Below the pieces are notes generated by a model that worked only from the letters and a program-made list of their open reading frames with translations, was not told where the DNA came from and did not search any database. A stretch of 64,000 nt of DNA, from positions 13,589-77,588 of the forward strand of contig PFGC01000037.1 in the NCBI GenBank assembly GCA_002781785.1, read 5' to 3'. Origin of the DNA: Candidatus Kerfeldbacteria bacterium CG15_BIG_FIL_POST_REV_8_21_14_020_45_12. GTDB lineage: Bacteria > Patescibacteriota > Patescibacteriia > UBA9570 > XYC2-FULL-38-9. Positions 6,572 through 49,318 of the stretch are shown piece by piece (positions within the stretch are counted from its first letter, which is position 1; each line of letters begins with the position of its first letter). Made by a program: the position numbers and the translations under genes.

Positions 6572-7236
6572 TAACATCTTCAGCCATGGTTGACGAAACA
6601 ACACCGAAAAAAATTTGTTTGTTTGGCCCTCAGGGTTCTGGAAAAGGAACACAGGCTGAGCGATTGGTAGGTCTATTTGGTGTTCCGCATGTATCACCTG
6701 GTAATATTTTTAGACAGGCAGTTGCCGAGGGCTCTGAACTGGGTTTGAAAGTAGAGAGTATAATTAATTCGGGTTCATTAGTGCCTGACGAAGTTACCAA
6801 TCAGTTGGTCAAGGAGAGGCTTGAACTGGAAGACTGTTTGGATGGTTTTGTACTAGACGGGTATCCTCGAAACGAAGTTCAGGCAGTTGCTTTAGATGAG
6901 GTGTCTACATTGACTCATGTAATTGTTATAGAAATTCCTGATGAGGAGTCTATTTCTAGGATTTCTATGCGTCGAACTTGCAGTAATTGTGGCATGACAT
7001 ATCACTTGCAATCAAAGCCTTCTAAGGTAGAGGGTGTTTGTGATAGTTGTGGATCCGAATTGGTTCAGCGCGATGATGATAAGCCGGAGGCTATCAGGCA
7101 TAGACTTAATATCTATCACCAGGAAACTGAGCCGTTGATCAAAAGATACGAAGATCGTGGAGTGCTTCATAGAATTGATGGGCGCGGCTCAATTGATGCT
7201 GTTTGGGAAAGAGTGCAAAGCTGCTTTTTTTCATAA
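6568..7236 (+). CDS. adk: Adenylate kinase (Zn-lid type)
   Basis: P-loop GPQGSGKGTQA and lid cysteines CSNCG...CDSCG. Confidence 0.9.
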   Translation: MITSSAMVDETTPKKICLFGPQGSGKGTQAERLVGLFGVPHVSPGNIFRQAVAEGSELGLKVESIINSGSLVPDEVTNQLVKERLELEDCLDGFVLDGYPRNEVQAVALDEVSTLTHVIVIEIPDEESISRISMRRTCSNCGMTYHLQSKPSKVEGVCDSCGSELVQRDDDKPEAIRHRLNIYHQETEPLIKRYEDRGVLHRIDGRGSIDAVWERVQSCFFS

Positions 7237-7238
7237 AC

Positions 7239-7988
7239 ATGAGCTTAATTAAGACACCTGATGAGATTTTGATCCTGGTTGAGAGTGGGCGAATTTTGGC
7301 TGAGTCGGTGACTAAGGTGTTAAGTGTAGTAGAGTCAGGAGTAACTACTTCTGATCTTGATGATTTTTTTGTAGAGACAATTAGAAAGCTTGGTGCAAAG
7401 CCAGCATTTCTAGGATATAAGGGATACACCAAAACAATTTGCACATCGGTTAATGACCAAGTTGTTCACGCTATTCCTGGTAAAGTTACTTTGGCAGATG
7501 GTGATATTATTGGTGTAGATTGCGGAGTTGTTTTCGAGGGCATGTACACTGACATGGCCCGCACGGTGGCGGTTGGTAGCATCACTGACGAAGCACGTCG
7601 TTTGATTGAGGTTACTAAAGAGGCTCTGCAAGCAGGTATTCAGCAAATGATTGTTGGCAACACCGTGGGAGATATTAGCGCTGCTGTTCAGGCGGTAGGG
7701 GATCGTGAGAAACTTGGAATTGTACGCGATCTTGTAGGACATGGTGTGGGTCACGCCGTGCATGAGGAGCCAGCGGTCCCAAACTATGGAAGAGCTGGAA
7801 CTGGCCTACGTTTAGAGGTTGGAATGGTTTTAGCAGTTGAGCCAATGTTTACATTAGGCGGTGACGATGTCATCTTTGAAAAAGACGGATGGACTGTGAC
7901 AACAGCCGATGGTACACTGTCCGCACATTTCGAGGACACCATAGTCGTAACTGAAGCAGGTCCTCACATTGTAACCAAAACAGCATAA
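7239..7988 (+). CDS. map: Methionine aminopeptidase type I
   Basis: Metal ligands in DIIGVDCG, HGVGH and EPM context. The start is taken at the internal ATG (MSLIKTP) to avoid a 34-nt overlap with adk. Confidence 0.9.
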   Translation: MSLIKTPDEILILVESGRILAESVTKVLSVVESGVTTSDLDDFFVETIRKLGAKPAFLGYKGYTKTICTSVNDQVVHAIPGKVTLADGDIIGVDCGVVFEGMYTDMARTVAVGSITDEARRLIEVTKEALQAGIQQMIVGNTVGDISAAVQAVGDREKLGIVRDLVGHGVGHAVHEEPAVPNYGRAGTGLRLEVGMVLAVEPMFTLGGDDVIFEKDGWTVTTADGTLSAHFEDTIVVTEAGPHIVTKTA

Positions 7989-26605: not shown

Positions 26606-26680
26606 GCCCGCATCGTCTAACGGCTAGGACGCCAGGTTCTCATCCTGGTAATCGGAGTTCGATTCTCCGTGCGGGTACCA
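26606..26680 (+). tRNA. tRNA-Glu (anticodon CTC), CCA encoded
   Basis: GCCCGCA acceptor, ATCGTCTAACGGCTAGGAC D-arm typical of tRNA-Glu, anticodon loop TTCTCAT, T-loop TTCGATT, then ACCA. Confidence 0.9.
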
Positions 26681-26717: not shown

Positions 26718-26800
26718 TAAAGATTGCTGTTTTTGTGGATTATTTGATCTTTTTTTTAGGTTTATTTATACTTCGGCCACCTCACTCTGTTTGTGGGGTA

Positions 26801-27490
26801 ATGCCGTTGAGGTGTTGTGTGACCTTACTTGATCTTATTCAAAAGTCGTACCCTGGCCTCTCGTTCGAAGATGCTCAGCTTCTGACGATCAGTGATCGAT
26901 GTGAAGCGGTGGCGAGGGGGCGCCGTGTTCCGGTGGTGGCCGATCACCTGGCCTACGTTCGCTCTGGCTTCGTCATGGAGTGCTACGGCGAACCCTGCGG
27001 ATCTGGTCAGTGGTCTCTCTTCCTGGGCACTCAGCTGTTCATGAATCCTGGGGCCTACTTCGGAACGTCTGATCCTGACATCGAGGCGTTGACCAGGACC
27101 AGGGTGCAGTACATCCCGCTCGAGGCGGTGAGGGCTGTGTGTCGACGGTCATCGTACCTGACCACGGTTTTGCAGGGCGGGATCATCGCTCAACGAGACC
27201 GTTTGGCCAGCTCGCTGGCCATGACCGGTCAGTCTGTGGAGGCACGCTTCACTCAGGTTCTGGCTGAAATGGTGATGACGATTGGACTGAGAGATGAGGA
27301 TGGAGTCTTCGTTCCCATCAAGATCAATCGGACTCAGCTGGCTCAGATGGTGGGCTGTAGAACAGAGACGGCCATCAGGGCTTGGAGGAGCTGCGCTGAT
27401 GGTGGTCAAATCATCGAGCGTCTGGAGGGATTCGTGATTCCTCATGACTCTTGCTTCATGGACCTGCTTGAGAAGAGAAGCGTCGCATAG
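26801..27490 (+). CDS. Crp/Fnr-family transcriptional regulator, encoded in a GC-rich island
   Basis: 229 aa; C-terminal helix-turn-helix INRTQLAQMVGCRTETAIRAWRSCADGGQI matches the HTH_Crp pattern, preceded by a cNMP-like beta-roll region. Codon usage is GC3-rich, unlike its neighbours. Confidence 0.65.
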   Translation: MPLRCCVTLLDLIQKSYPGLSFEDAQLLTISDRCEAVARGRRVPVVADHLAYVRSGFVMECYGEPCGSGQWSLFLGTQLFMNPGAYFGTSDPDIEALTRTRVQYIPLEAVRAVCRRSSYLTTVLQGGIIAQRDRLASSLAMTGQSVEARFTQVLAEMVMTIGLRDEDGVFVPIKINRTQLAQMVGCRTETAIRAWRSCADGGQIIERLEGFVIPHDSCFMDLLEKRSVA

Positions 27491-32902: not shown

Positions 32903-32925
32903 CCCCGCAGTTTTGCGGGGTTTTT
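32903..32925 (+). terminator. Rho-independent terminator
   Basis: CCCCGC-agtttt-GCGGGG then TTTTT. Confidence 0.75.
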
Positions 32926-32968
32926 AGTAAAAAAAAGAAGCCCGGTCGATCGCAGGTGATCGAACGGA

Positions 32969-33499
32969 CTAGTGGCTCGCGAAGCTCAGGCTGGGGCGAG
33001 TAGCGCCGCCAAAGTGCTCGGCGAGCCACGAGCGCATCTTGTCGGTCGGGAAGGGGGCGATGTTGCCAGTTCCCGGATCGCGGACGAGCTGCAGCCAGCC
33101 TTCGGTGTAGGCCCAGTCCCCGGGGAGGACGGGGAAGCTGGCGCGGAAGCGGTGTCCGACAGGGTCGGGAAGCCCGAAGCGAGCGTCTCCGAGGTCGTTC
33201 TGGATGACGGCCATTGCGGAGGTGTTGTCGCCGTACTGGCGCAGGACGGCCACGCAGAGCAGGCAGTCCCAGCAGCGGCCGGGGCCAAGCAGGTCGGGCA
33301 GTCGCCGCCATTCCAGCCGATCGGTGCTCAGGGGTACCGCTGTGTTGGGATGCTCCCATCGGACGATGCCCTGGTGGATGGCGACTGTAATCGGCCACAG
33401 GGTGCCGATGATCGAGTGCGCCCTGAGATCGCGGAGGGCATGGGGTGAGGAGGGGGGCCCTTCGGCGGTGGGCACCCAGGTTGCAGGACGATGCTTCAT
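32969..33499 (-). CDS. Hypothetical protein (177 aa) in a GC-rich island, with a CxxCxxC motif
   Basis: ATG at 33499 with a GGAG ribosome-binding site. The amino-acid composition is balanced (MKHRPATWVP...GRCWDCLLC...WLAEHFGG), whereas overlapping frames are Arg/Pro/Ala low-complexity. GC3-rich codons. Confidence 0.45.
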   Translation of the reverse strand: MKHRPATWVPTAEGPPSSPHALRDLRAHSIIGTLWPITVAIHQGIVRWEHPNTAVPLSTDRLEWRRLPDLLGPGRCWDCLLCVAVLRQYGDNTSAMAVIQNDLGDARFGLPDPVGHRFRASFPVLPGDWAYTEGWLQLVRDPGTGNIAPFPTDKMRSWLAEHFGGATRPSLSFASH

Positions 33500-33614
33500 C
33501 GAGACTCCACGGGTTTGTCGGCTTACTGTCTGCCGAGCTGAGGAAACGAACACCTCAATGGGTGTTGCCTGTATGTATCAAGAATACCCTGGCTCGTCAA
33601 TGATTCGGCCCCTC

Positions 33615-33642
33615 TTGACACTGCAAAATAGGTGAGTATACT
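33615..33642 (+). promoter_or_regulatory. hrcA promoter TTGACA-16-TATACT
   Basis: Consensus -35 box immediately upstream of the CIRCE element. Confidence 0.6.
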
Positions 33643-33646
33643 GCTA

Positions 33647-33673
33647 TTAGCACTCAGCCAATGAGAGTGCTAA
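33647..33673 (+). promoter_or_regulatory. CIRCE operator (HrcA binding site) TTAGCACTC-N9-GAGTGCTAA
   Basis: Perfect match to the canonical CIRCE inverted repeat, 25 nt upstream of hrcA. Confidence 0.9.
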
Positions 33674-33697
33674 ATCAGGCACTAAATCCCTGGAAAT

Positions 33698-34423
33698 ATG
33701 GGAAAAAAAGAACGACAAGAGAACTTACTCCGGGTCATTGTGCAGGAGTATATTGCCACCGCAAAGCCAGTTAGCTCCAAGCAGCTGGTGGAGAGTGGTG
33801 AGTTTGATTGTTCCCCAGCTACTTTGAGGAATGACATGGCTGAGTTAGAGGGCGAGGGCTTTATCGCTCAACCGCATACTTCGGCCGGACGCGTTCCAAC
33901 TGAAAAGGGCTATCAGTACTATATTAAGCACTTTATCGTGCCACAGCAATTAAAGGGTGCGCGAAAAGAGGCGATTGATCAGGCCGTGCAACGTCAGCCG
34001 GATGAGCGACAACTGCTCAAGGTGTTGGCCAAAACGCTAGCTGATCTGACCGACGAGACGGTCGTAATATCAATGTCCGGGCAAAACTATTACTACACTG
34101 GCATTGCGCATATGTTCCGAAAGCCGGAATTTGCTGCCCAAGCCGATTTGCTACAGGAGATTGGTGAAATGTTCGACCAAATCGACGAGGTTATGAAACA
34201 AGTTAACCATTCGGTTAGCCGCACCATGCAGGTCTTGGTTGGTCGGGAAAATCCTTTTTCGCACAACTGTTCAATGATTGTCTCCGAGCATCGCTTGGCA
34301 GACGAACAGGCAGGGGTGTTAGGGATTGTTGGACCGATGCGCATGGACTATGACGCCAACATTGCAATGTTGTCTTATGTCGAATCATTAATGGATGACT
34401 TATACGATGAGTACCGACGATAA
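33698..34423 (+). CDS. hrcA: Heat-inducible transcription repressor HrcA
   Basis: N-terminal winged helix (RVIVQEYIATAKPVSSKQL); CIRCE upstream; grpE-dnaK-dnaJ downstream. Confidence 0.9.
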   Translation: MGKKERQENLLRVIVQEYIATAKPVSSKQLVESGEFDCSPATLRNDMAELEGEGFIAQPHTSAGRVPTEKGYQYYIKHFIVPQQLKGARKEAIDQAVQRQPDERQLLKVLAKTLADLTDETVVISMSGQNYYYTGIAHMFRKPEFAAQADLLQEIGEMFDQIDEVMKQVNHSVSRTMQVLVGRENPFSHNCSMIVSEHRLADEQAGVLGIVGPMRMDYDANIAMLSYVESLMDDLYDEYRR

Positions 34424-34979: not shown

Positions 34980-36944
34980 ATGGGAAAAATTCTAGGAATC
35001 GATCTTGGAACCACGAACTCCTGTGTCGCGATTTTGGAGGGTGGTCAACCAAAGGTCATTGAAAACAAAGAAGGTAACCGTACTACACCTTCTATTGTAG
35101 CAGAGAGTAAAACTGGCGAACTGATCGTTGGACTGGCTGCTAAACGACAAGCGGTAACTAATCCAGAAAATACAGTCTTTTCAGTTAAGCGACTAATTGG
35201 TCGCCGTTGGGAAGACGAAGAAGTTCAAAAAGATGTAAAGCTGATGCCGTATGAGATCAAGCACGAGGGTGATCGCGTGACGGTAAAGATGGGGGAGAAG
35301 GAATATACTCCACAGGAAATCTCTGCAAAGATTTTACAGAAGCTAAAGACAGACGCTGAAGAAAAACTTGGTGAAAAAATTACCGAGGCGGTTATTACTG
35401 TGCCGGCTTATTTTGACGATTCACAGCGTCAGGCCACTAAGGATGCTGGAAAGATCGCTGGTCTGGATGTTAAGCGTATCATCAATGAACCGACAGCGGC
35501 GGCGTTGGCTTACGGATTTGATAAAAAGAAAGACGAAAAAATTATTGTATATGATTTGGGTGGCGGCACCTTTGATGTTTCTGTTCTAGAAGTTGGCTCT
35601 GACACCGTAGAGGTTCGGGCTACTCATGGCGACACTCATTTGGGTGGAGATGACTTCGACCAGATCTTGATTCACTGGATTTTAGAAGAGTACAAGAAGC
35701 AAGAAGGTGTTGATCTAGCCCAGGACAACCTGGCTTTACAGCGTTTAAAATCGGCTGCAGAAAAGGCGAAGATTGAACTGTCTAGTGCTATGGAGACAGA
35801 GATCAACGAGCCATTTATCGCTAACGATCCTTCCAGCGGACCAAAGCATTTGGTCATGAAGATTTCTCGAGCTAAGTTGGAGGAGCTGTGTGCTGATTTG
35901 GTAAAACGAACCTTTGGTCCAGTGGAAGAAGCTTTGAAAGACGCTGGAATGAGCAAGGGAGATATAAACGAAATCGTGCTGGTCGGTGGTCAGACTCGCA
36001 TGCCAATGATTCAACAGCAGGTAGAGGAGTACTTTGGCAAAAAGCCAAACTCCACTGTTAATCCTGACGAAGTTGTGGCCATGGGCGCAGCTGTTCAAGC
36101 TGGAGTACTGCAAGGAGATGTTAAAGATGTCTTACTGCTTGATGTTATTCCATTGTCACTTGGTATTGAAACCTTGGGTGGTGTAGCTACTAAGCTCATC
36201 GAACGTAATACTACTATCCCAACACAGAAACAGCAGATTTTTTCGACTGCCGCTGATAACCAAACTTCAGTTGAAGTACACGTTGTGCAGGGTGAGCGTG
36301 AGTTAGCTAACGATAACAAGTCTCTTGGAAGATTTATTCTCTCTGGCATTCCACCGTCTCCGCGTGGCGTTCCTCAAGTGGAAGTTGCCTTTGATGTGGA
36401 TGCTAACGGTATCTTGAATGTTACCGCTAAGGATAAAGCTACCAACAAAGAACAATCTATTCGGATTGAGGCTTCTAGTGGTTTGAGCGATGACGAGATT
36501 CAAAAAATGACCAAGGATGCTGAAGAGCACGCCGATGAAGATAGAAAGAAGAAGGAGTTAATCGAGTCAAAGAATATCGGTGAGACGATGATCTACACTA
36601 CTGAGAAGGCTTTGAAAGATGCGGAAGAGCACGTGAAGTCAGGTGAGATCAGTCAAGATGATGTAAAAAATATTCAAGACAAGATTGAGGACCTGAAAAA
36701 GAAGTTGGAAGGTGAAGACCTTGAGGCAATTAAAAAAGCTGGTGACGATTTATCAACGGCCGCTCAAAAAATTGGTGAGATTCTCTACGCTAAAGAACAG
36801 GAGAAATCTGGCGCGGAGGCAGGCGAAGGTGCTACTCCAGGCGAAGAAAAAACTGACGACGTGGTTGATGCTGACTTCGAAGAAAAAACAGACAACGAGT
36901 CAGAAGAAAAGTCAGACGATGCGGCGAAGGGTGAAGATAAATAG
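34980..36944 (+). CDS. dnaK: Chaperone DnaK (Hsp70)
   Basis: [22 protein letters not shown] and the full Hsp70 architecture. Confidence 0.97.
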
Positions 36945-37723: not shown

Positions 37724-38815
37724 ATGTCTAAAGACTATTACAACATACTCGGGGTGGAGAAGGGCGTTAGTGAAGATGAGCTAAAGAAGGCCTATCGGAA
37801 ACTAGCGCATAAGTATCACCCAGATAAAGAAGGTGGCGACGAAGCCAAATTTAAGGAGGTTAACGAGGCCTATCAGGTTTTGAGTAGCCCAGACAAGCGC
37901 AAAATGTACGACCAGTACGGCGAGGCCGGCGTCAACGGTGCCGCTGGTGGCGGACCAGGCGGAATGAATTGGGAAGACATCATGCGTCAAGGTGGTTTTG
38001 CCGGAGGTGGTCAGGGTGTTGAATTTGACCTAGGAGATATTTTTTCAGAGTTTTTTGGCGGCGGTGGACGCCGAGGTCAAAAACAGCAACAGCGCGGTAG
38101 TGATATTCAGATGGACTTGACCATGACCTTTAAAGAGGCTGCCTTTGGTCTTAAAAAAACCCTTAACGTGTTAAAGGGGTCTACTTGCAGTACTTGTTCT
38201 GGCAATGGTGCCAAGCCTGGTACTCCTATTAAAGAATGTACTACTTGCAAAGGGGCTGGTGTGGTTGAACAATTACAGCGCAGCGTGTTTGGAGCGGTTA
38301 GGTCGCACGTGGCCTGTGAGGCTTGTAAAGGTCGCGGTAAAACTGTCGAGACAGCTTGTGAGACCTGTCATGGAAAGGGCGTTGAACGCAAAGACACTGC
38401 CTTGGAAGTAGACATTCCAGCTGGCATTGATGATGGTCAAACAATTCGTATTACTGGCCAAGGAGAGGCCGGAGAATTTGGCGCACAGTCTGGTGATTTA
38501 TTTGTAACGGTTCATGTTAAATCCCACGATGGCTGGGAGCGCGATGGCGATAATATTTATTCAGAAACAGAAATTCCGTTTGCTACTTTAGTAATGGGTG
38601 GGACTATTATAGTGGATACCCTGGACGGTAAGATGGAAGTAAAAGTACCTAGTGGTACCGGCAGTGGTAAGCAGCTTAGGTTACGCGGAACCGGGGTAAC
38701 CCGTTTGCATGGTGGAGGCCGAGGCGATCACATTATTACCGTTCAAGTTGAGGTGCCTAAAAAAGTTTCGAGTAAGTATAAAAAGATTCTCAAGCAACTG
38801 TCTGAACTAGACTAA
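37724..38815 (+). CDS. dnaJ: Chaperone DnaJ
   Basis: J-domain HPD (KYHPDKE), G/F-rich region, and four CxxCxGxG zinc-finger repeats. Confidence 0.95.
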   Translation: MSKDYYNILGVEKGVSEDELKKAYRKLAHKYHPDKEGGDEAKFKEVNEAYQVLSSPDKRKMYDQYGEAGVNGAAGGGPGGMNWEDIMRQGGFAGGGQGVEFDLGDIFSEFFGGGGRRGQKQQQRGSDIQMDLTMTFKEAAFGLKKTLNVLKGSTCSTCSGNGAKPGTPIKECTTCKGAGVVEQLQRSVFGAVRSHVACEACKGRGKTVETACETCHGKGVERKDTALEVDIPAGIDDGQTIRITGQGEAGEFGAQSGDLFVTVHVKSHDGWERDGDNIYSETEIPFATLVMGGTIIVDTLDGKMEVKVPSGTGSGKQLRLRGTGVTRLHGGGRGDHIITVQVEVPKKVSSKYKKILKQLSELD

Positions 38816-38842: not shown

Positions 38843-38889
38843 ACAAACAAAAAATCCCCTCATGGGATCAATTTTTTTATAGAAAAGAG

Positions 38890-39172
38890 AGGTGGAGCTG
38901 GGTGGGAGGTCGGCCGAAGCTTACCCCCACCCAGCTAGCACTGTTGGTATGATCACTGTGGACTCCCCAGTCCAACGCAGGGCTTCCGAGGCCCTACTCG
39001 CCGGTCCCGCAGGCGTTATCGTTCCTTGCGTGGGGTCTCCAGTCCCACCGATAAAGCCAAGCCAGCTCAGTAATCACGGCTCTGGCCGATGCCCATGCGG
39101 CTCATCGACCAAAGGTCCCTCGTCAACGAGTGACAGCCCTCCAGCTGGTTCGTTAACGTCACCTCTAGCGCC
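38890..39172 (-). ncRNA. Candidate novel structured RNA (~280 nt, GC-rich) with its own promoter; family unassigned
   Basis: On the minus strand, a TTGACT-17-TAGAGT promoter sits at 39179-39207 on plus-strand coordinates. Downstream is a GC-rich region packed with hairpins, ending in a perfect 11-bp stem (AGCTGGGTGGG...CCCACCCAGCT) followed by CAGCTCCACC and a U-rich tract. Every frame gives low-complexity Pro/Ser/Gly or Arg translation. Confidence 0.3.
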
Positions 39173-39213
39173 GTCGGCACTCTATCTGAAGGGCCTTATT
39201 TAGTCAAATATAA

Positions 39214-39270
39214 AAAAAGAGGCGGGTCGATCAGCAGCTCTCCGAAATATTCCAGAGACCGATCGATCCG
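39214..39270 (-). terminator. Terminator hairpin for paralog A (minus strand)
   Basis: Long imperfect hairpin CGGATCGATC...GATCGACCCG followed on the minus strand by CCTCTTTTTTT; it overlaps the stop codon. Confidence 0.5.
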
Positions 39271-40068
39271 CTATTTGTTGCCAGGCGCGGCTGGGCTAGT
39301 GACCAGCACCAGTAGGCCATCACGGTTGGCGCGACAGCCGCCACTGGCCATTGCCTCCCTGACGATGGCTTCCAGCTGATCCGCCACTTGAGGTGATGGA
39401 TCCTCATCCTCATCGTTGATGAAGTAGATTCCACAGATGTAGCTCTCCTGGTCGCCATCATCGACCCCGAGCATGACCCGAGTGCCGATGGGCAGATCCT
39501 CGATGCTGCTCAGACGATCCTGGATGGTTTCGAGCAGTTCAGCCACGGCAATGCCTAGCTCGGCGGTTTCGAGCAGGGGCATGTCCACCTTGCTGTCACC
39601 GGAGAGTTGGATCTTCATGCGGGAGCGTTCAGACCAGTCCTTGATCTGGGCATCGCAGACGATGGTTGCTGCGATCAGGTCGCTCAGGCTTGCGTTGCCG
39701 ATCGGTACAGTCCTAGCGAACGGAAGATCGAGGTACACGTGGAAGCTGTGCTGTCGCCGGTGCTTGAGCCCCAGGGCCTCTACCATCTCGGCGAGATTGA
39801 AGAGCATTTCGACGGCTCGGGGCAGGCAGGCAGGTCCCAGTTCGCCGACCGGCAGCAGGATCAGCATGGTGTCTTCACCATCGAGCGCCACCGGGTTGTT
39901 CGAGTCCATCAGGTCGATGCCTTCCTCGATGAGATCGGCACAGACCTCTTCCAGGGTGTTGGGGAAGGGTTGACCCAGAAGTGAGGTCAGGTGACCTGCC
40001 GAGTCAGTAGCTGTGAACAGGATCGTCACCGATCCGCTTGCTCCAGTGAAGATGTCAGTCGGTGTCAT
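39271..40068 (-). CDS. Unknown-function protein, paralog A of a tandem triad (GC-rich island)
   Basis: 265 aa from the ATG at 40068, which has a ctGGAGGacagATG ribosome-binding site. It shares blocks with B and C (VTILFTATDS.. / ..MLILLPVGELGPA). GC3-rich codons; promoter TTGACT-17-TAAGGT at 40105-40133 on the minus strand. Confidence 0.5.
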   Translation of the reverse strand: MTPTDIFTGASGSVTILFTATDSAGHLTSLLGQPFPNTLEEVCADLIEEGIDLMDSNNPVALDGEDTMLILLPVGELGPACLPRAVEMLFNLAEMVEALGLKHRRQHSFHVYLDLPFARTVPIGNASLSDLIAATIVCDAQIKDWSERSRMKIQLSGDSKVDMPLLETAELGIAVAELLETIQDRLSSIEDLPIGTRVMLGVDDGDQESYICGIYFINDEDEDPSPQVADQLEAIVREAMASGGCRANRDGLLVLVTSPAAPGNK

Positions 40069-40201
40069 CTGTCCTCCAGTAGCACTCACCTTGAGCGCGA
40101 TCTTACCTTAATAGCAAGGGTCGATCTAGTCAATAAAAAAAGAGACCCTACACGCACCTGGAGAGGTGGGTAGGGGTGAGAGAGACTTGCTGCGCCTCTG
40201 C

Positions 40202-40918
40202 TCAGGAGCTGGGGTTGTCCGTGCGGCGCCGGGAACCTCCCGCGCCGAAGCGGCGGAGGAGCTCCAGCAGCGACTCGCTGCCGTCGGTCTGGTCGCGGAA
40301 GATGTCTTCGACGTCGAAGCCGGGGCTGAAGCCGACGAACCGCACTCGGACCAGCGTCGGACCACGCGAGGTGGGATGGCCGCTGTTGAAGACGCCGTCG
40401 ATGGCATCTTTGGCTGCGGCGAGCTCCTTGAGCTCACGGCAGACCCAGGTGGGGTCCGTGAACACCCCGACGCTCGAGGAGACGCGACCGGTGGTGAGCA
40501 GATTGGTGATCCGTCCGAAGCTCAGCCCTCCGAGCAGGGCGAGGGCCCAGCTGACCTCGTCGTTGGAGACCTGCCAGAGATCGGACGGATCGATGGCGAT
40601 GGCCACGTCGGCGAGGTTCTGGTTGGTGACGTTGGCGACGATCTGTCGTCCCGCCATCGTCAGGCGGTTTGCCAGGCCTTCGTCGATCGCCCCCACCGGT
40701 ACGAACATGACCTTGCGGCCAGTCTGGGTGGTGTAGATCGTCGAGGCGGCCAGAGCATCACCGCGGATGCGGCGATGATCGGCGTTGAAGATGGCTTCAG
40801 CCTCGACGTCCTGGTGGAAGCCGAAGAGGGGGACGCGACCGAGGCCGCAGTAGCAGGTGCTGACCAGGATGACGGTCACGGCGGGGAGCTTTCCAGAGAA
40901 CAGGGGACGGGGCTGCAT
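40202..40918 (-). CDS. Unknown-function protein, paralog B of the tandem triad
   Basis: 238 aa; ATG with a GGAGG ribosome-binding site. Blocks AVTVILVSTCY and KVMFVPVGAIDEGLA align with A. Own promoter TTGACA-18-TATTGT (40999-41028, minus strand) and a downstream hairpin plus T-run. Confidence 0.5.
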   Translation of the reverse strand: MQPRPLFSGKLPAVTVILVSTCYCGLGRVPLFGFHQDVEAEAIFNADHRRIRGDALAASTIYTTQTGRKVMFVPVGAIDEGLANRLTMAGRQIVANVTNQNLADVAIAIDPSDLWQVSNDEVSWALALLGGLSFGRITNLLTTGRVSSSVGVFTDPTWVCRELKELAAAKDAIDGVFNSGHPTSRGPTLVRVRFVGFSPGFDVEDIFRDQTDGSESLLELLRRFGAGGSRRRTDNPSS

Positions 40919-41105
40919 GTTGCCTCCAGGCTACAGCTGTGATGTTTGCTCGAAACCGAAACTTTTGAATTTGGGGATTTTACCCCTCGAGCCGCCTGAC
41001 AATACCGGATTAATTTGGTCTTTGTCAAGGGTTTTTAAAAAAAGATCGCGCGGCAGACTCGGAGTCTAGCGCACGCGAAGGTGGCGGGTGTGACCTGATC
41101 CTTCT

Positions 41106-41789
41106 CTAATCGCGGTAGAAGGGGGCCACGTCGATGGCCCAGCCACTGTTCCGCTCGATGGCGGCAAGCAGACGGTCGCCGAGGCGGCCGGCAGCCTTGC
41201 GTGGGTGTCGGATCGTCTGGCTGGTCTTGCGCCAGGTCTCCGCCAGTCGCTCTGACCGCTGCGCCCATGTCAGCCAGCTGCTGTGGATCCAGGCCATATC
41301 CCTGGCCGTCTGGTCGTCCACGACCTCCGGGCAGGTCACGAGCACCTGCGGGGCGAAGGGGGTGTTGCGCCAGCGAGCCATGGTAGCGACGGTCTCCATG
41401 CAGCCCATGATCAGCTGCATCAGGCAGGTGCCTCGCAGCTGGCCGGGGTCGAGTACCAGGCAGGTATGCGTGACCGAGAGGTGCTTCTGAATCAGCAGAG
41501 CTCCCAGGTACTGGCCGATGTGGCGGTAGTACAGGCTGCTCAGGTCACGCCAGTCCTGTCCGAGCCCGACCATGATCAGGGTGGCCGTACCCGAGACGGT
41601 GATCAGGGACATCACGTTGAGCTGGCCGGTGATGTCTGGGAAGCGGACGGCCGCGTCCATGATCGAGTTGAAGTAGCCTTCCGGCAGCTTGTCCGGGCTC
41701 GAGATGAGCACGGGCTGGTTGTTGTCATCGCGGCCCGTGAAGACGACGACGAAGCGGGTTGGTGCCAGGGTGAAAGGAACGGGGAGCAT
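41106..41789 (-). CDS. Unknown-function protein, paralog C of the tandem triad
   Basis: 228 aa from the ATG at 41789 (GGAGGcagtacATG). Blocks TRFVVVFTGRDD and VMSLITVSGTA resemble A and B. Own promoter TTGACC-17-TACACT (41843-41871, minus strand), divergent from the 41939 gene. Confidence 0.5.
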   Translation of the reverse strand: MLPVPFTLAPTRFVVVFTGRDDNNQPVLISSPDKLPEGYFNSIMDAAVRFPDITGQLNVMSLITVSGTATLIMVGLGQDWRDLSSLYYRHIGQYLGALLIQKHLSVTHTCLVLDPGQLRGTCLMQLIMGCMETVATMARWRNTPFAPQVLVTCPEVVDDQTARDMAWIHSSWLTWAQRSERLAETWRKTSQTIRHPRKAAGRLGDRLLAAIERNSGWAIDVAPFYRD

Positions 41790-41887
41790 GTACTGCCTCC
41801 AGTACGTCAGGGTGGTGCCGGCAGAAACTACCAAGCCGCCGCAGTGTATCCAAATATTTATTATAGGTCAACGCTTATTGTTAAATA

Positions 41888-41916
41888 TCTAACTTTGTGG
41901 TATAATTATTTTAGAA
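41888..41916 (+). promoter_or_regulatory. Promoter TTGTTA-17-TATAAT for the membrane protein, divergent from the paralog C promoter
   Basis: Consensus -10 box and 17-nt spacer. Confidence 0.5.
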
Positions 41917-41938
41917 AAAAAATCATTCGCAACTAGCG

Positions 41939-43706: not shown

Positions 43707-45110
43707 CTAGAGTCCAAGTTGATCGTCAATTGGTTTTAGCACCGGACCGTCTTCGGTGTCGTCTACGGCAAAACCAAGTTTGGCAATTTTGTCTCGTAGC
43801 TCATCAGCGGTGGTATAGTCTTTGGCGGTGCGCGCCTCTTCTCGTTTTCCTATAAGCTTATCCATTTTTTTGCCGGCCTTCTGTAAACGCTCACGAAGTG
43901 AGTTGCTTTGCCGCATTAGATCTAGACCGAGTATTTTATCCATCTCAAATATGGTTATAGCTTTTACGGCCGATGTATCATTTGACTTTACCACTTCCCA
44001 CAATGCAGCCATGGCCTCTGGTAGATTTAAATCATCGTTGATGGCTGAGTGAAATTTTTCTAAAGAATCCGCGTTGCCGGTGGAGGCCGGTTCATCCCAA
44101 GTTGATAATAGATAGACAAGTTTATTGTACGCGTGTTGTGATTTGTCTAGAGTTTCCCAGCTAAAATTTAACTTTGAGCGATAGTGCGCGGTTAATGCAA
44201 AGTAACGGTAGGCTAGGGGATTAAAGCCTTTGTCGATGAGGTTGGATAAGGTAATAAAATTACCCACTGATTTCCCCATACGACCGTCATTGATTAGGAG
44301 AAACTCTCCATGCATCCACCAGCGGGCAAAAGGCTGATCGGTGACAGCCTCTGATTGAGCAATTTCGTTGGTGTGATGAACTGGCATATGATCGACTCCG
44401 CCGGTATGGATATCAAGAGTTTTTCCGAGATATTTCATGGCCATGGCAGAGCATTCTAAATGCCAACCTGGAAAGCCAGTGCCCCAAGGTGATTCCCATT
44501 CCATAGCTCGTTTTGAGTCTGTTGGGGAAAGTTTCCACAGCGCAAAATCTGTCGGGTGATGCTTTTCAATACTTTTTTCTACTCGAGCCCCTTCTTGTAG
44601 TCCGGAAATGTCTAGTCGAGCCATTTTTCCGTAATCTGGAAACTTAGATGTATCAAAATAAATTCCATCAGAGGTTGCATAGGTGTAGCCTTTGGCTTCG
44701 AGTTGCTTAACAAGCTCTATTTGCTCAGGAATATGTTCTGTGGCTCGAGGGCGTTGGCTAGCCGGTAAGATGTTGAGACGCTTAATATCGTTATGAAAGG
44801 CCTCTTCATAAAACTGAGCAACTTGCCAAACAGTCTTGCCCTCGCGGGCGGCTCCTTTTTCCATTTTATCATCGCCGGCATCAGCGTCGTCAGTTAGGTG
44901 ACCAACGTCAGTGATGTTCATCACGTGATTTACATCGTACCCGTTAACTTGCAGGGCACGGCGCAGGATGTCGTAAAACAAAAAAGTGCGCAGGTTGCCA
45001 ATATGCGCGTAATCATAAACAGTCGGACCACAGGTGTAGAGAGTGACGTAGTCGGGCTTAGCTGGAGTGAACTCCTCCTTCGATCGAGTCAGCGAGTTAT
45101 ACAGTTTCAT
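43707..45110 (-). CDS. cysS: Cysteinyl-tRNA synthetase
   Basis: HIGN (HIGH) motif, KMGKS motif, and zinc-binding cysteines. Confidence 0.9.
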   Translation of the reverse strand: MKLYNSLTRSKEEFTPAKPDYVTLYTCGPTVYDYAHIGNLRTFLFYDILRRALQVNGYDVNHVMNITDVGHLTDDADAGDDKMEKGAAREGKTVWQVAQFYEEAFHNDIKRLNILPASQRPRATEHIPEQIELVKQLEAKGYTYATSDGIYFDTSKFPDYGKMARLDISGLQEGARVEKSIEKHHPTDFALWKLSPTDSKRAMEWESPWGTGFPGWHLECSAMAMKYLGKTLDIHTGGVDHMPVHHTNEIAQSEAVTDQPFARWWMHGEFLLINDGRMGKSVGNFITLSNLIDKGFNPLAYRYFALTAHYRSKLNFSWETLDKSQHAYNKLVYLLSTWDEPASTGNADSLEKFHSAINDDLNLPEAMAALWEVVKSNDTSAVKAITIFEMDKILGLDLMRQSNSLRERLQKAGKKMDKLIGKREEARTAKDYTTADELRDKIAKLGFAVDDTEDGPVLKPIDDQLGL

Positions 45111-46777: not shown

Positions 46778-49318
46778 ATGGAGGCATTTTTAGCTGGAAT
46801 AGACACATCAATGCTGATAGCGATATACGTTATAGGATCTTTGGCATTTTTGTTTTTTGTTGTTATGACGGTACGTTGGTTTGTTAGGCGTAGTTTGGAG
46901 AAGCCAAACGCCTTTCAAATGTCAGTGATGATGATTACCGTCCCGAAAGAAGGTCAAGCGGAAGATCAGCAAATGGGATTGTCATCTGATCAGGCTAAAG
47001 AGCGTATTTCAGTGGCTGAGGTTTTCTTTTCAACTTTAGGTGGAGTTAAAGCACAGCGCGGGTTAGCAGCTTGGTGGTACGGACGCAACGATCATTTTGC
47101 TTTGGAGATTGTAGCTGATCGTGAAGGTTTAGTGACTTTTTACGCAGCTGTACCAAGGTATATGCAACAGTACTTTGAGCAACAAATTCACGCGCAGTGG
47201 GAAGATGCCAAGATAGATGAAGTGGAAGATTATAATATTTTTGAACCACAAGGCGTAGTCGTTGGCTCAACCTTAAAGCTCACTAGGAGCCAGATTTTTC
47301 CGATTACGACTTACGATAAAATGGAGTCAGATCCACTTAATTCTCTGACCAACATTTTATCTCGATTTGAAAAGGAAGAGGGAGCGGCTGTGCAGATTGT
47401 TATTCGATCAGCTCGACCTGAGTGGCATAGGTTGCCCACCCAAGTCGCTAGAACCATGCAGCAAGGTAAAAGTGTGGACAGGGCTTACAGTGAAGTAACG
47501 GCAAATCTTTTTTCTAAGGTTTGGCGAGAGTTTGCCAGAGTGATCTCGCAAAAGCAAAATAAAACAGAAGCTGGAATTGATCCCCGGACAGACCGAGAGT
47601 ACCGAATCTCTCCAATGGAAGAGGAGGTAGTTAAGGCCCTAGAGGAAAAAACCAGCAAGGCCGGATTTGATGTAAATATTAGAGTGGTGGTGTCGGCGGC
47701 TAGGCAAGACGTGGCTACCTATAAACTGAATAATGTATTAAACGCTTTTACTCAGTATGCCGGCTATCAGTATGGAAATAAGTTTGTAGCTAGTAAACCG
47801 AGCACTAGTCCTGATTTGGTGAAAGATTTTATTTATCGTAATTTTGATGATAGGAAAAGTTACGTTTTGAATACAAAAGAAATGGCCTCGCTATGGCACT
47901 TGCCGTTACAGAACACCGAGACCCCTAATATTCGTTGGTTGATGTCCAAAAAATCACCACCTCCTTCAAACCTTCCAAAAGAGGGCGTTATTATTGGCGT
48001 GGTTGAATATCGCGGCAAGGAGCAGATGGTTAGAATCCAGCGAGCAGATAGAACCAGGCACATGTATATTATTGGTAAGTCTGGTTCTGGTAAGTCTGTT
48101 TTACTTACTTCAATGGTTATCCAGGATATCCAAAATGGTGAAGGCGTTGGCGTTATCGATCCGCACGGAGAATTGATTGAAGACATTTTGCCGCACATTC
48201 CAAAAGATCGCGCCGATGATGTGATTATTTTTGACCCGTCATATACTGATTATCCGATGGGTTTGAATATGCTCGAATATGAAAATGATGACCAGCGTGA
48301 TTTTGCAGTTCAAGAGATGGTCGCTATTTTCTATAAATTATTTGGAGAAGAGATGATTGGTCCGATGTTTGAGCATTACATGCGTAATGCGATGTTGGCG
48401 TTAATGGAAGATAAAGAGGCTGGCGCGACCTTGATTGAAGTCCCGCGCATGTTTACGGATGACAAGTTCCGCAAGGATAAAGTTAGCAAGGTAAAGAATT
48501 TAATCGTGAAGAATTTCTGGGAACAGGAATACGAACAGTCACAACAAGGTCAACAGGCAGCAGACATGTTGTCGTATGTTATCTCCAAGATTGGTAGGTT
48601 TTTGACTAATGACACGATGCGAAACATTATTGGTCAAAAAAAATCGGCCTTTAATTTTAAGGAGGTCATGGACAAGCAGAGTATTTTGTTAGTTAACCTG
48701 TCTAAGGGAAAAATTGGAGAAGTTAACTCATCATTGCTCGGATTAATTTGTGTCACAAAGCTGCAAATGGCAGCTATGGCCAGAGCTAGTCAGGCCAAGG
48801 CTGACCGCAAAGATTTTTATCTATACATGGATGAGTTTCAAAATTTTACTACAGATTCGATTGCAACTATTTTGTCTGAGGCACGTAAATATCGTTTGAA
48901 CTTAATCATGGCCCATCAGTATATTGGACAGCTGTCTGAAAATAACGACACTTCAATTCGAGATGCTGTTTTTGGTAATGCGGGCACGATGTTGTCTTTT
49001 AGAGTTGGTGCAGAAGATGCTGATTTCTTGGTAAAAGAGTACGCTCCAGTTTTTGATGAAAATGACATTATTAATGTTGATCAGTACACAGCTAATACGA
49101 AGCTATTGATAGATAATACAGCTTCTCGTCCATTTAATATGAAAACCATCATGCCGCCGGAGGGGGATCCTCATATGAGTGATGTGCTCAAAGAGATGGC
49201 TAAGTTAAAATATGGCAGTCCGCGGCAGGCCGTTGAAGACGATATTCGAGAGCGAGGAGCCTTAGATCGCCTTGGAAAACAAGGCCCATCGCCACTTGGG
49301 CCAGATTCGTTTATCTAG
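46778..49318 (+). CDS. Membrane-anchored FtsK/HerA-superfamily ATPase (VirB4/TraC-like, AAA_10/DUF87)
   Basis: 846 aa; N-terminal TM; Walker A YIIGKSGSGKS followed by GVIDPHGEL (HerA/VirB4 hallmark); Walker B LYMDEFQNF; HQYIGQL. Confidence 0.65.
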   Translation: MEAFLAGIDTSMLIAIYVIGSLAFLFFVVMTVRWFVRRSLEKPNAFQMSVMMITVPKEGQAEDQQMGLSSDQAKERISVAEVFFSTLGGVKAQRGLAAWWYGRNDHFALEIVADREGLVTFYAAVPRYMQQYFEQQIHAQWEDAKIDEVEDYNIFEPQGVVVGSTLKLTRSQIFPITTYDKMESDPLNSLTNILSRFEKEEGAAVQIVIRSARPEWHRLPTQVARTMQQGKSVDRAYSEVTANLFSKVWREFARVISQKQNKTEAGIDPRTDREYRISPMEEEVVKALEEKTSKAGFDVNIRVVVSAARQDVATYKLNNVLNAFTQYAGYQYGNKFVASKPSTSPDLVKDFIYRNFDDRKSYVLNTKEMASLWHLPLQNTETPNIRWLMSKKSPPPSNLPKEGVIIGVVEYRGKEQMVRIQRADRTRHMYIIGKSGSGKSVLLTSMVIQDIQNGEGVGVIDPHGELIEDILPHIPKDRADDVIIFDPSYTDYPMGLNMLEYENDDQRDFAVQEMVAIFYKLFGEEMIGPMFEHYMRNAMLALMEDKEAGATLIEVPRMFTDDKFRKDKVSKVKNLIVKNFWEQEYEQSQQGQQAADMLSYVISKIGRFLTNDTMRNIIGQKKSAFNFKEVMDKQSILLVNLSKGKIGEVNSSLLGLICVTKLQMAAMARASQAKADRKDFYLYMDEFQNFTTDSIATILSEARKYRLNLIMAHQYIGQLSENNDTSIRDAVFGNAGTMLSFRVGAEDADFLVKEYAPVFDENDIINVDQYTANTKLLIDNTASRPFNMKTIMPPEGDPHMSDVLKEMAKLKYGSPRQAVEDDIRERGALDRLGKQGPSPLGPDSFI

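Follow-up and report, generated by a model that had tools for sequence, protein, structure and literature searches.

A 64-kb stretch of DNA from an uncultivated groundwater population of Candidatus Kerfeldbacteria (Candidate Phyla Radiation, CPR, or Patescibacteria), referred to here as the window, contains an islet of GC-rich DNA between dnaJ and a conserved membrane-protein gene. The islet is ~3.0 kb long and carries three genes, A, B and C, and a candidate structured RNA, all on the minus strand. It is best explained as a lineage-specific, probably recent horizontal acquisition of moron-like, self-contained units from a high-GC donor that uses Shine-Dalgarno (SD) sequences, a reading to which we assign a probability of roughly 0.7. 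The evidence comes from the composition of the DNA, the arrangement of its expression signals, the gene order in relatives and the recurrence of the same junctions in independent assemblies.

The islet and its insertion site

The limits of the islet, 38887..41903 (no strand assigned to the whole), were set from the GC profile and from contig breakpoints. On one side it is bounded by the dnaJ terminators, on the other by the 35 nt that immediately precede the membrane-protein gene. Measured in 300-nt windows, GC is 0.55-0.68 over ~38850-41850 and 0.42-0.48 in the flanks; the mean of 38851-41850 is 0.61 against 0.447 for the 64-kb window, so the windowed profile confirms the jump in base composition reported in a preliminary description of this DNA. 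At the left edge the GC step comes just past a bidirectional terminator at 38853-38869. This terminator separates dnaJ from the islet, which is transcribed convergently with it. At the right edge, contig L088 diverges from the window at 41904, and contigs L087 and L089 begin at 41905 and 41901. The flanking genes are housekeeping genes: dnaK/dnaJ, Dus and CysS. The only repeat present at both edges is an imperfect 13-nt A/T-rich word (38874-38886 and 41906-41918; repeat family D5), and this word is locally frequent, with four copies in 3.6 kb. The open reading frame (ORF) list and a Pfam search showed no integrase or transposase gene in the islet, and a tRNA scan of the window placed no tRNA next to it.

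Sixty-five loci around DnaJ homologues, taken from species-level genomes, were compared with the window. In at least nine relatives (L014, L015, L021, L029, L030, L036, L037, L042 and L054) the homologue of the 229-residue membrane protein begins 130-450 bp after dnaJ, and the gap in those nine loci is low in GC with no GC-rich stretch. None of the 65 loci contains A, B, C or RNA-like sequence. In the three closest relatives (DnaJ 60-65% identity) other genes follow dnaJ. An island-free allele from the same population was not found among the public assemblies. Gene order thus indicates that the islet is an insertion into a short dnaJ/membrane-protein spacer that related genomes have kept.

The identical island is found at the same place in at least ten independent public assemblies. 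The carriers, identified by exact look-up, are ENA contigs (MEGAHIT k141), JGI contigs, an NCBI contig from a metagenome-assembled genome (MAG) and Logan contigs of three SRA runs. Contigs from at least five JGI samples (3300003830, 3300004208, 3300005237, 3300007987 and 3300025142) span the island or reach into it, and the longest island-bearing contig is 746 kb. The full 3,123 bp with its junctions is 100% identical among copies, and the identity is 99.9-100% when fragments are included. Across all fragments just two bases vary, at 40092 and 40098, both within the 5'-untranslated region (UTR) of A.

Two further observations concern the contig ends. Fragmentary public contigs end at unit borders (39175, 39226, 39260-39274, 40101-40133 and 40997-40999), and the two single-base changes adjoin one of these clusters of ends. 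Such breaks could be coverage dips at hairpins and T-runs, or could reflect heterogeneity at the level of cassettes. Contig L088 (JGI 3300007985) matches the window only from 41904 on; its nt 1-44 are unrelated sequence, which could represent either a chimeric end of the contig or another allele or cassette on the right side of the islet.

Genes A, B and C

Gene A (39271..40068, minus strand) encodes an acidic orphan protein of 265 residues with an isoelectric point of 4.2. Gene B (40202..40918, minus strand) and gene C (41106..41789, minus strand) encode orphan proteins of 238 and 227 residues. These are the coordinates originally proposed. Several public gene callers annotated opposite-strand ORFs across B and C, and for this reason the frames were tested by codon-position composition. 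In the minus-strand frames, GC at the first, second and third codon positions (GC1, GC2 and GC3) is.65/.41/.71 for A,.65/.49/.85 for B and.61/.47/.87 for C. This pattern fits genes of a high-GC genome, and the plus-strand ORFs over B and C show its mirror image, with high GC1; A, B and C are therefore encoded in their minus-strand frames. The shadow ORFs, at 40166-40942 (plus strand, 258 residues) and 41283-41936 (plus strand, 217 residues), are called in most public annotations instead of B and C, and the NCBI record has only a 104-residue fragment for C. The wrong-strand calls are a systematic gene-caller error on GC-rich inserts in a lower-GC genome. All three ORFs (227-265 codons) are uninterrupted in the frame defined by GC3, and the start of each is correctly placed.

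The products appear to be cytoplasmic and are probably of the alpha/beta kind. Two other assignments were considered and dropped. Gene B was examined as a lipoprotein; its hydrophobic peak is borderline, and its "VSTC" motif presumably does not fit the canonical lipobox. Pfam, searched to E <= 1, did not bear out a suspected likeness between C and the N-terminal domain of M17 aminopeptidases.

Promoters, ribosome-binding sites and terminators

Each of the four units is preceded by a promoter-like site on the minus strand. A consensus scan of 3.8 kb gave 7 promoter-like sites, where shuffled sequence gave 1.7 +/- 1.3. The site of the RNA unit (39179..39207) reads TTGACT-17-TAGAGT with 9/12 matches, and that of B (40999..41028) reads TTGACA-18-TATTGT with 10/12. 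The site of A (40105..40133, TTGACT-17-TAAGGT) lies below the threshold of the scanner and was read from the sequence. The site of C (41843..41871, TTGACC-17-TACACT), like those of the RNA unit and B, came out of the scan; it is in AT-rich DNA, back to back with the plus-strand promoter-like site of the membrane-protein gene at 41878-41906. The sites earlier ascribed to the three genes were thus recovered; in A the -10 matches the consensus at only 3/6 positions. Native promoters also fit TTGACA/TATAAT (hrcA, TTGACA-17-TATACT; tRNA-Glu, TTGACA-17-TAGAAT), and the islet promoters appear compatible with the host.

A GGAGG site, always within CTGGAGG, stands before each of the three ATGs, as had been described: 4 nt before the ATG in A (40073..40079, minus strand) and in B (40923..40929, minus strand), and 6 nt before it in C (41796..41802, minus strand). 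Four of the seven minus-strand copies of CTGGAGG in the 64 kb fall in the islet, the fourth of them inside the RNA unit.

Stable hairpins followed by U-runs close the units on the minus strand. The putative terminator of the RNA unit (38897..38935) has a hairpin of -33.2 kcal/mol (z -5.8 against shuffles) and then the tail UCCACCUCUCUUUUCU. Those of A (39213..39271; -27.2 kcal/mol, z -5.5), B (40136..40175; z -5.1) and C (41037..41076; z -2.5) each consist of a hairpin and U7. They were missed by a simple terminator scanner and were detected by folding against shuffles. A terminator for each gene, and with it the proposal that each gene is its own transcription unit, is thus supported at the level of sequence signals, by which each islet unit would be monocistronic.

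Foreign origin and timing

Composition sets A, B and C apart from the surrounding genes. Their GC3 is 0.71-0.87, whereas 59 native ORFs have 0.39 +/- 0.05 with a maximum of 0.54; A, at 0.71, is lower than B and C, at 0.85-0.87. Arg is 2-5 times commoner than Lys in the three proteins, and in native proteins Lys exceeds Arg; among the foreign genes the Arg/Lys ratio is 2-7, against less than 1 for native ones. Relative synonymous codon usage (RSCU) is correlated at r = 0.75-0.93 among A, B, C and a similar unit, D, found elsewhere in the window, and at -0.34 to 0.07 between these and native genes.

The translation signals differ in the same way. At their public starts 15/16 native genes, including dnaK, dnaJ, cysS, dus and hrcA, have no SD sequence (for example dnaK at 34980, dnaJ at 37724, hrcA at 33698 and, on the minus strand, cysS at 45110), and GGAGG precedes only 1/59 native ORFs when crude starts are used. 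The mean native duplex energy to a generic anti-SD is -1.7 kcal/mol; the corresponding value is -9.3 for A, B and C and -5.9 for D. The host 16S 3' end lies outside the window. Because the native genes are almost SD-less, the GGAGG sites came with the foreign DNA.

The preliminary description had seen foreign coding sequences equipped with host-looking signals and with spacers AT-rich like the host, and had favoured a long-domesticated acquisition, for example from an actinobacterial host of an epibiont. Most of this has to be revised. The ribosome-binding sites are foreign to this genome, and the islet spacers are intermediate, at 0.46-0.53 GC against 0.40 in native intergenic DNA, and lower than the coding sequences, which is to be expected near promoters and U-runs in DNA from any high-GC donor. 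With GC3 at 0.85-0.87, amelioration toward the 0.39 of the host is not visible. This, together with the absence of the island from every other genome sampled, points to a recent, lineage-specific gain, and such a gain is probable. As to the donor, the annotation of the organism is that of a Candidatus Kerfeldbacteria MAG, and neither an actinobacterial nor another source was identified. The part that holds is the foreign origin itself. GC3, the excess of Arg over Lys, codon usage anticorrelated with that of native genes and absence from relatives all support it, and by its sequence the islet DNA is foreign, from a high-GC SD-using donor.

Orphan status and the relationship of A, B and C

None of A, B, C and D has a match in Pfam, NCBIfam, PADLOC or PHROGs, and the PADLOC-DB v2 defence-protein models gave none at E <= 1. 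A word-indexed search of 5.8 billion protein clusters returned only A and B themselves and nothing for C, and each of the four proteins is in a singleton cluster. The record of A is labelled a hypothetical protein from a Candidatus Kerfeldbacteria MAG in the CG15_BIG_FIL series, a set of names used in the Crystal Geyser aquifer study. Searches of phages and plasmids by blastn and tblastn, of PDB sequences and of IMG/VR found nothing for A, B or C. In an exhaustive phmmer search of 1.84 billion representatives the only match besides B itself was P0003. It was rejected as a relative of B, since in this 51-residue tandem-repeat protein (BNR/Asp-box-like by eye) a single weak motif match is counted seven times. 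Thus A, B, C and the RNA are orphans, with no relatives among ~15 billion proteins or in Pfam, NCBIfam, PADLOC, PHROGs, PDB, Rfam, phages and plasmids, and the early impression that the proteins belong to no recognised family was correct.

The same cannot be said of the proposal that the genes are three tandem paralogues with alignable blocks, a triplicated protein. Pairwise BLASTP of A, B and C gave E = 0.097, 0.088 and 4.2 over 15-35 residues. Full-length Smith-Waterman scores against 300 shuffles gave z = 1.75, 1.24 and -0.09, and the global scores were under the shuffle mean. MAFFT found no common register: it shifts C by ~45 residues relative to A and B. For want of a consistent register, a three-sequence N-terminal profile was given up. 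By their sequences, A, B and C are not detectably paralogous. Local alignment of the first 95 residues, a region chosen post hoc, gave z values of 3.97 for A-B, 2.62 for A-C and 1.86 for B-C. Single-sequence AlphaFold2 models of A and C place strands and helices near the same positions over the first ~140 residues. The confidence of these models (predicted local distance difference test, pLDDT, 40-42) makes them unusable for fold assignment; a Foldseek comparison of them with the PDB gave no match at E <= 0.001.

The candidate structured RNA

The fourth unit, at 38880..39172 on the minus strand, has no ORF, with stop codons in all three minus-strand frames, and carries its CTGGAGG at 39138-39144. 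The 296 nt 3' of the fourth promoter fold at -137 kcal/mol (z -4.67). The terminator hairpin could drive this value, and the 227-nt body was therefore refolded alone. It gave z -3.46, and -3.39 in a separate shuffle; fourteen 227-nt windows of equally GC-rich coding sequences (CDSs) served as control and had a mean z of -1.38 with a minimum of -2.81. The ~290-nt unit is, on its predicted folding, a credible structured-RNA candidate. It could equally be a gene cassette that has lost its ORF, and one of its frames shows a faint coding-like GC periodicity (.61/.55/.68).

Rfam gave no match in the islet at gathering thresholds and, at E <= 10, only sub-threshold chance matches, none of them in the RNA body. 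Exact 17-20-mers looked up in viral and metagenome collections produced chance word matches only, with flanks that could not be aligned. These searches gave no homologues and hence no covariation in support of the fold. Two roles were considered and rejected. The first was antisense regulation of its neighbours: duplexes between the RNA and the 5'-UTRs of the four genes (A-D) are no stronger than those with shuffled UTRs (z -0.2 to +0.8). The second was a CsrB-like sponge; the RNA has ~9 GGA triplets in 296 nt against ~6 expected (hand count), which is not an enrichment. The only feature common to the RNA unit and the gene units is the CTGGAGG motif. Of the promoter-driven structured RNA described at the outset, therefore, the promoter-like site and the unusual folding stand and no Rfam family could be given to it. 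Its role as the dedicated RNA of an uncharacterised system did not gain support: complementarity to the UTRs is not above chance, PADLOC has no match, and, as no second instance exists, there is no evidence that the RNA co-occurs with the genes.

Unit D and other features of the window

A unit of similar build, D, lies outside the islet on the minus strand at 32920..33600. It is on the other side of the dnaK operon, ~6 kb from the islet, between a ferredoxin gene and hrcA; these two genes are 145 bp apart in L057. Unit D has a promoter-like TTGACG-17-TACATA, a GGAG 5 nt before the ATG at 33499, an ORF end at 32969 and a hairpin with U8. Its 176-residue orphan ORF is GC-rich, with RSCU correlations of 0.79-0.93 to A-C, and public annotation has a 158-residue ORF on the wrong strand in its place. 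The islet-like build and codon usage of D suggest repeated uptake from the same type of donor. A tblastn search of IMG/VR reported one viral-contig stretch as a relative of D; no locus was recovered, and further searches were negative.

Two other GC-rich patches were noted, the first of them less extreme than the units above. Directly 3' of tRNA-Glu (26606-26680) is a plus-strand gene, 26735-27490, with 0.575 GC and GC3 0.66. It has sub-threshold Pfam matches to a Crp-like helix-turn-helix (E 6e-5) and a cyclic nucleotide monophosphate-binding domain (E 0.078), as in a Crp/Fnr-like regulator, and its codon usage is unlike that of A-D (G3 > C3). The 3' side of a tRNA gene is a classic site for acquired DNA. 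In L011, which at 63% DnaJ identity is among the closest relatives sampled, a patch of 0.60-0.62 GC at 6950-7700 contains a stand-alone, lipoprotein-like ORF of 235 residues. Its lipobox reads LCAGC, an SD-like GAGGTGAGG and a hairpin with T-run accompany it, and its sequence is unrelated to A-D.

Two further features lie near these units. A VirD4/TraG-like coupling protein of 846 residues (T4SS-DNA_transf, DUF8128) is encoded at 46778-49318 on the plus strand, ~5 kb from the islet, with small unannotated ORFs after it; the protein may bear on how the host takes up or transfers DNA. Upstream of hrcA, at 33615-33675, a textbook sigma70 promoter, TTGACA-17-TATACT, precedes a CIRCE-like inverted repeat, TTAGCACTC-N9-GAGTGCTAA. 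With these two elements before hrcA, the native heat-shock operon would be under canonical HrcA/CIRCE control.

Proposed mechanism and alternatives

In the proposed mechanism, ~3.0 kb of donor DNA would have been inserted into the short spacer that divides dnaJ from the conserved membrane-protein gene. The islet would consist of four self-contained units, each with promoter, CTGGAGG leader, payload and intrinsic terminator, the payloads being three unrelated-looking orphan proteins (A, which is acidic, B and C) and a structured RNA of ~290 nt. A sigma70-type RNA polymerase of the host would read each promoter, and each terminator would insulate its own unit. Expression of the heat-shock operon would be undisturbed because dnaJ and the islet are transcribed towards each other, with a bidirectional terminator in between. 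As a best guess, held with low confidence, the products may be accessory, conditionally useful cargo like that of morons and of small defence or immunity islets, and not one cooperative system.

A number of points weigh against this account. The promoters, ribosome-binding sites and terminators are consensus and folding matches, read from the sequence alone, and the -10 of A is weak. Database searches found no donor or relative of any part of the islet, which leaves composition as the sole guide to when and in which direction the transfer took place. Recency is only loosely bounded, the nearest sampled relative being at 65% DnaJ identity. No convincing target duplication or flanking direct repeats were found at the edges, in addition to the absence of integrase and transposase. 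As all public copies are identical, selection on the ORFs is not measurable, and they may be intact only because they are young. In an SD-less genome GGAGG might either help or hinder translation. Finally, the weak hints from modelling and local alignment that A-C share an N-terminal alpha/beta domain would favour common ancestry over unrelated cargo.

The islet might instead be neutral passenger DNA, a recent foreign fragment that is unexpressed or useless, with ORFs still intact for lack of time and an "RNA unit" that is a decayed fourth gene. This is unlikely, even though the public copies, at 99.9-100% identity, offer no sign of purifying selection to weigh, the host makes no use of SD sequences and the products are orphans everywhere. 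The RNA unit, too, has the promoter-CTGGAGG-terminator build of a gene with no ORF and only the faint periodicity noted above. Against it, three ORFs of 227-265 codons are uninterrupted with correctly placed starts, and the RNA body folds better than every matched CDS window. The islet is also present in every long contig from at least ten samples, and the genome that carries it is small, with a longest contig of 746 kb; streamlined genomes, as those of CPR bacteria are, tend to shed useless DNA.

A cooperative uncharacterised system, for example one of defence or host interaction, in which A, B and C are highly diverged paralogues with an N-terminal alpha/beta domain that act with the RNA, is rather improbable. 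It would account for four units that are adjacent, co-oriented and alike in their CTGGAGG leader and codon usage, for local alignments of the N-terminal 95 residues that exceed shuffles (A-B z 3.97) and for the elements that the models of A and C place near the same positions over the first ~140 residues. The N-terminal test was, however, post hoc, both models have a pLDDT of ~40, and full-length comparisons are at chance level with no MAFFT register. PADLOC, Pfam and PHROGs gave no match, RNA-UTR complementarity is not above shuffles, and no second instance was found in which the units might co-occur. The units also appear transcriptionally insulated from one another, the similar unit D stands alone 6 kb away, and the GC3 of A, 0.71, is unlike the 0.85-0.87 of B and C.

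Still less probable is a more general form of the cassette idea, in which A, B, C, the RNA and D would be a class of mobile expression cassettes (promoter, SD leader, payload and terminator) that enter CPR intergenic spacers as modules, with presence/absence variation within the population. Their strong SD would give them a distinct translational status, and A-C would possibly be very diverged relatives working with the RNA. The observations that bear on it are the clustering of contig breaks at unit borders and the one alternative junction at 41904. An assembly chimera or an engineered construct, both of which the preliminary description had kept in view, or contamination, any of which the sharp composition step, the textbook-cassette layout, the tendency of fragment contigs to break at unit boundaries and the different 44 nt upstream of 41904 in L088 might suggest, is excluded for practical purposes because at least ten independent environmental assemblies, across assemblers and projects (MEGAHIT/ENA, JGI, NCBI MAG and Logan) and in contigs of up to 746 kb, hold both junctions in identical form.

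Significance

Read as a horizontal acquisition, the islet is a clean, well-bounded case in which a streamlined CPR genome took in foreign DNA as units ready for expression, and relatives still show the unoccupied site. SD-bearing foreign genes in an SD-less genome are a natural test case for how acquired genes are translated and how recent imports can be recognised. The case also bears on annotation: gene callers choose the wrong strand in GC-rich inserts of this kind, and B and C are mis-annotated in most public records. Any function found for A, B, C or the RNA would be new because they have no relatives in very large databases; no specific function is indicated.

Comparison with known systems

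The closest parallel is the phage moron, a concept of Hendrix and Juhala, which is defined as extra DNA between syntenic genes, with deviant GC and its own promoter and terminator (reviewed by Cumby, Davidson & Maxwell 2012, PMC3594210). Like a moron, the islet lies between genes that are adjacent in at least nine relatives (130-450 bp gap). It has deviant GC (0.61 vs 0.447 for the window; GC3 0.71-0.87 vs 0.39). Each unit has, at sequence level, its own promoter and factor-independent terminator. In both, the payloads are mostly proteins of unknown function. Unlike a moron, the islet is not in a phage or prophage; its flanks are housekeeping genes, and it has no PHROG match and no phage or IMG/VR relatives. 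It also has four units in a row, one of them with an RNA payload, and the recipient is a CPR bacterium with SD-less genes. The islet is therefore moron-like and not a member of the moron class.

Classical genomic islands and islets are similar in their atypical composition and codon usage, their absence from relatives and their accessory genes of unknown function. The islet differs from classical islands in being only 3 kb long, with no integrase, tRNA target or convincing flanking repeats, and in having every gene as a separate transcription unit. It resembles small-RNA-plus-protein systems, such as retrons, type III toxin-antitoxin systems and CRISPR-associated RNAs, in that a structured non-coding RNA would be encoded beside protein genes. 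In contrast to these, it lacks a reverse transcriptase, tandem RNA repeats and any nuclease or Cas family; Rfam and PADLOC gave no match, and the RNA shows no complementarity to neighbouring transcripts. The event is of an ordinary, well-documented kind, the horizontal gain of orphan genes, and what is mildly unusual about it is the fully modular cassette architecture and the presence of SD-bearing genes in an SD-less genome.

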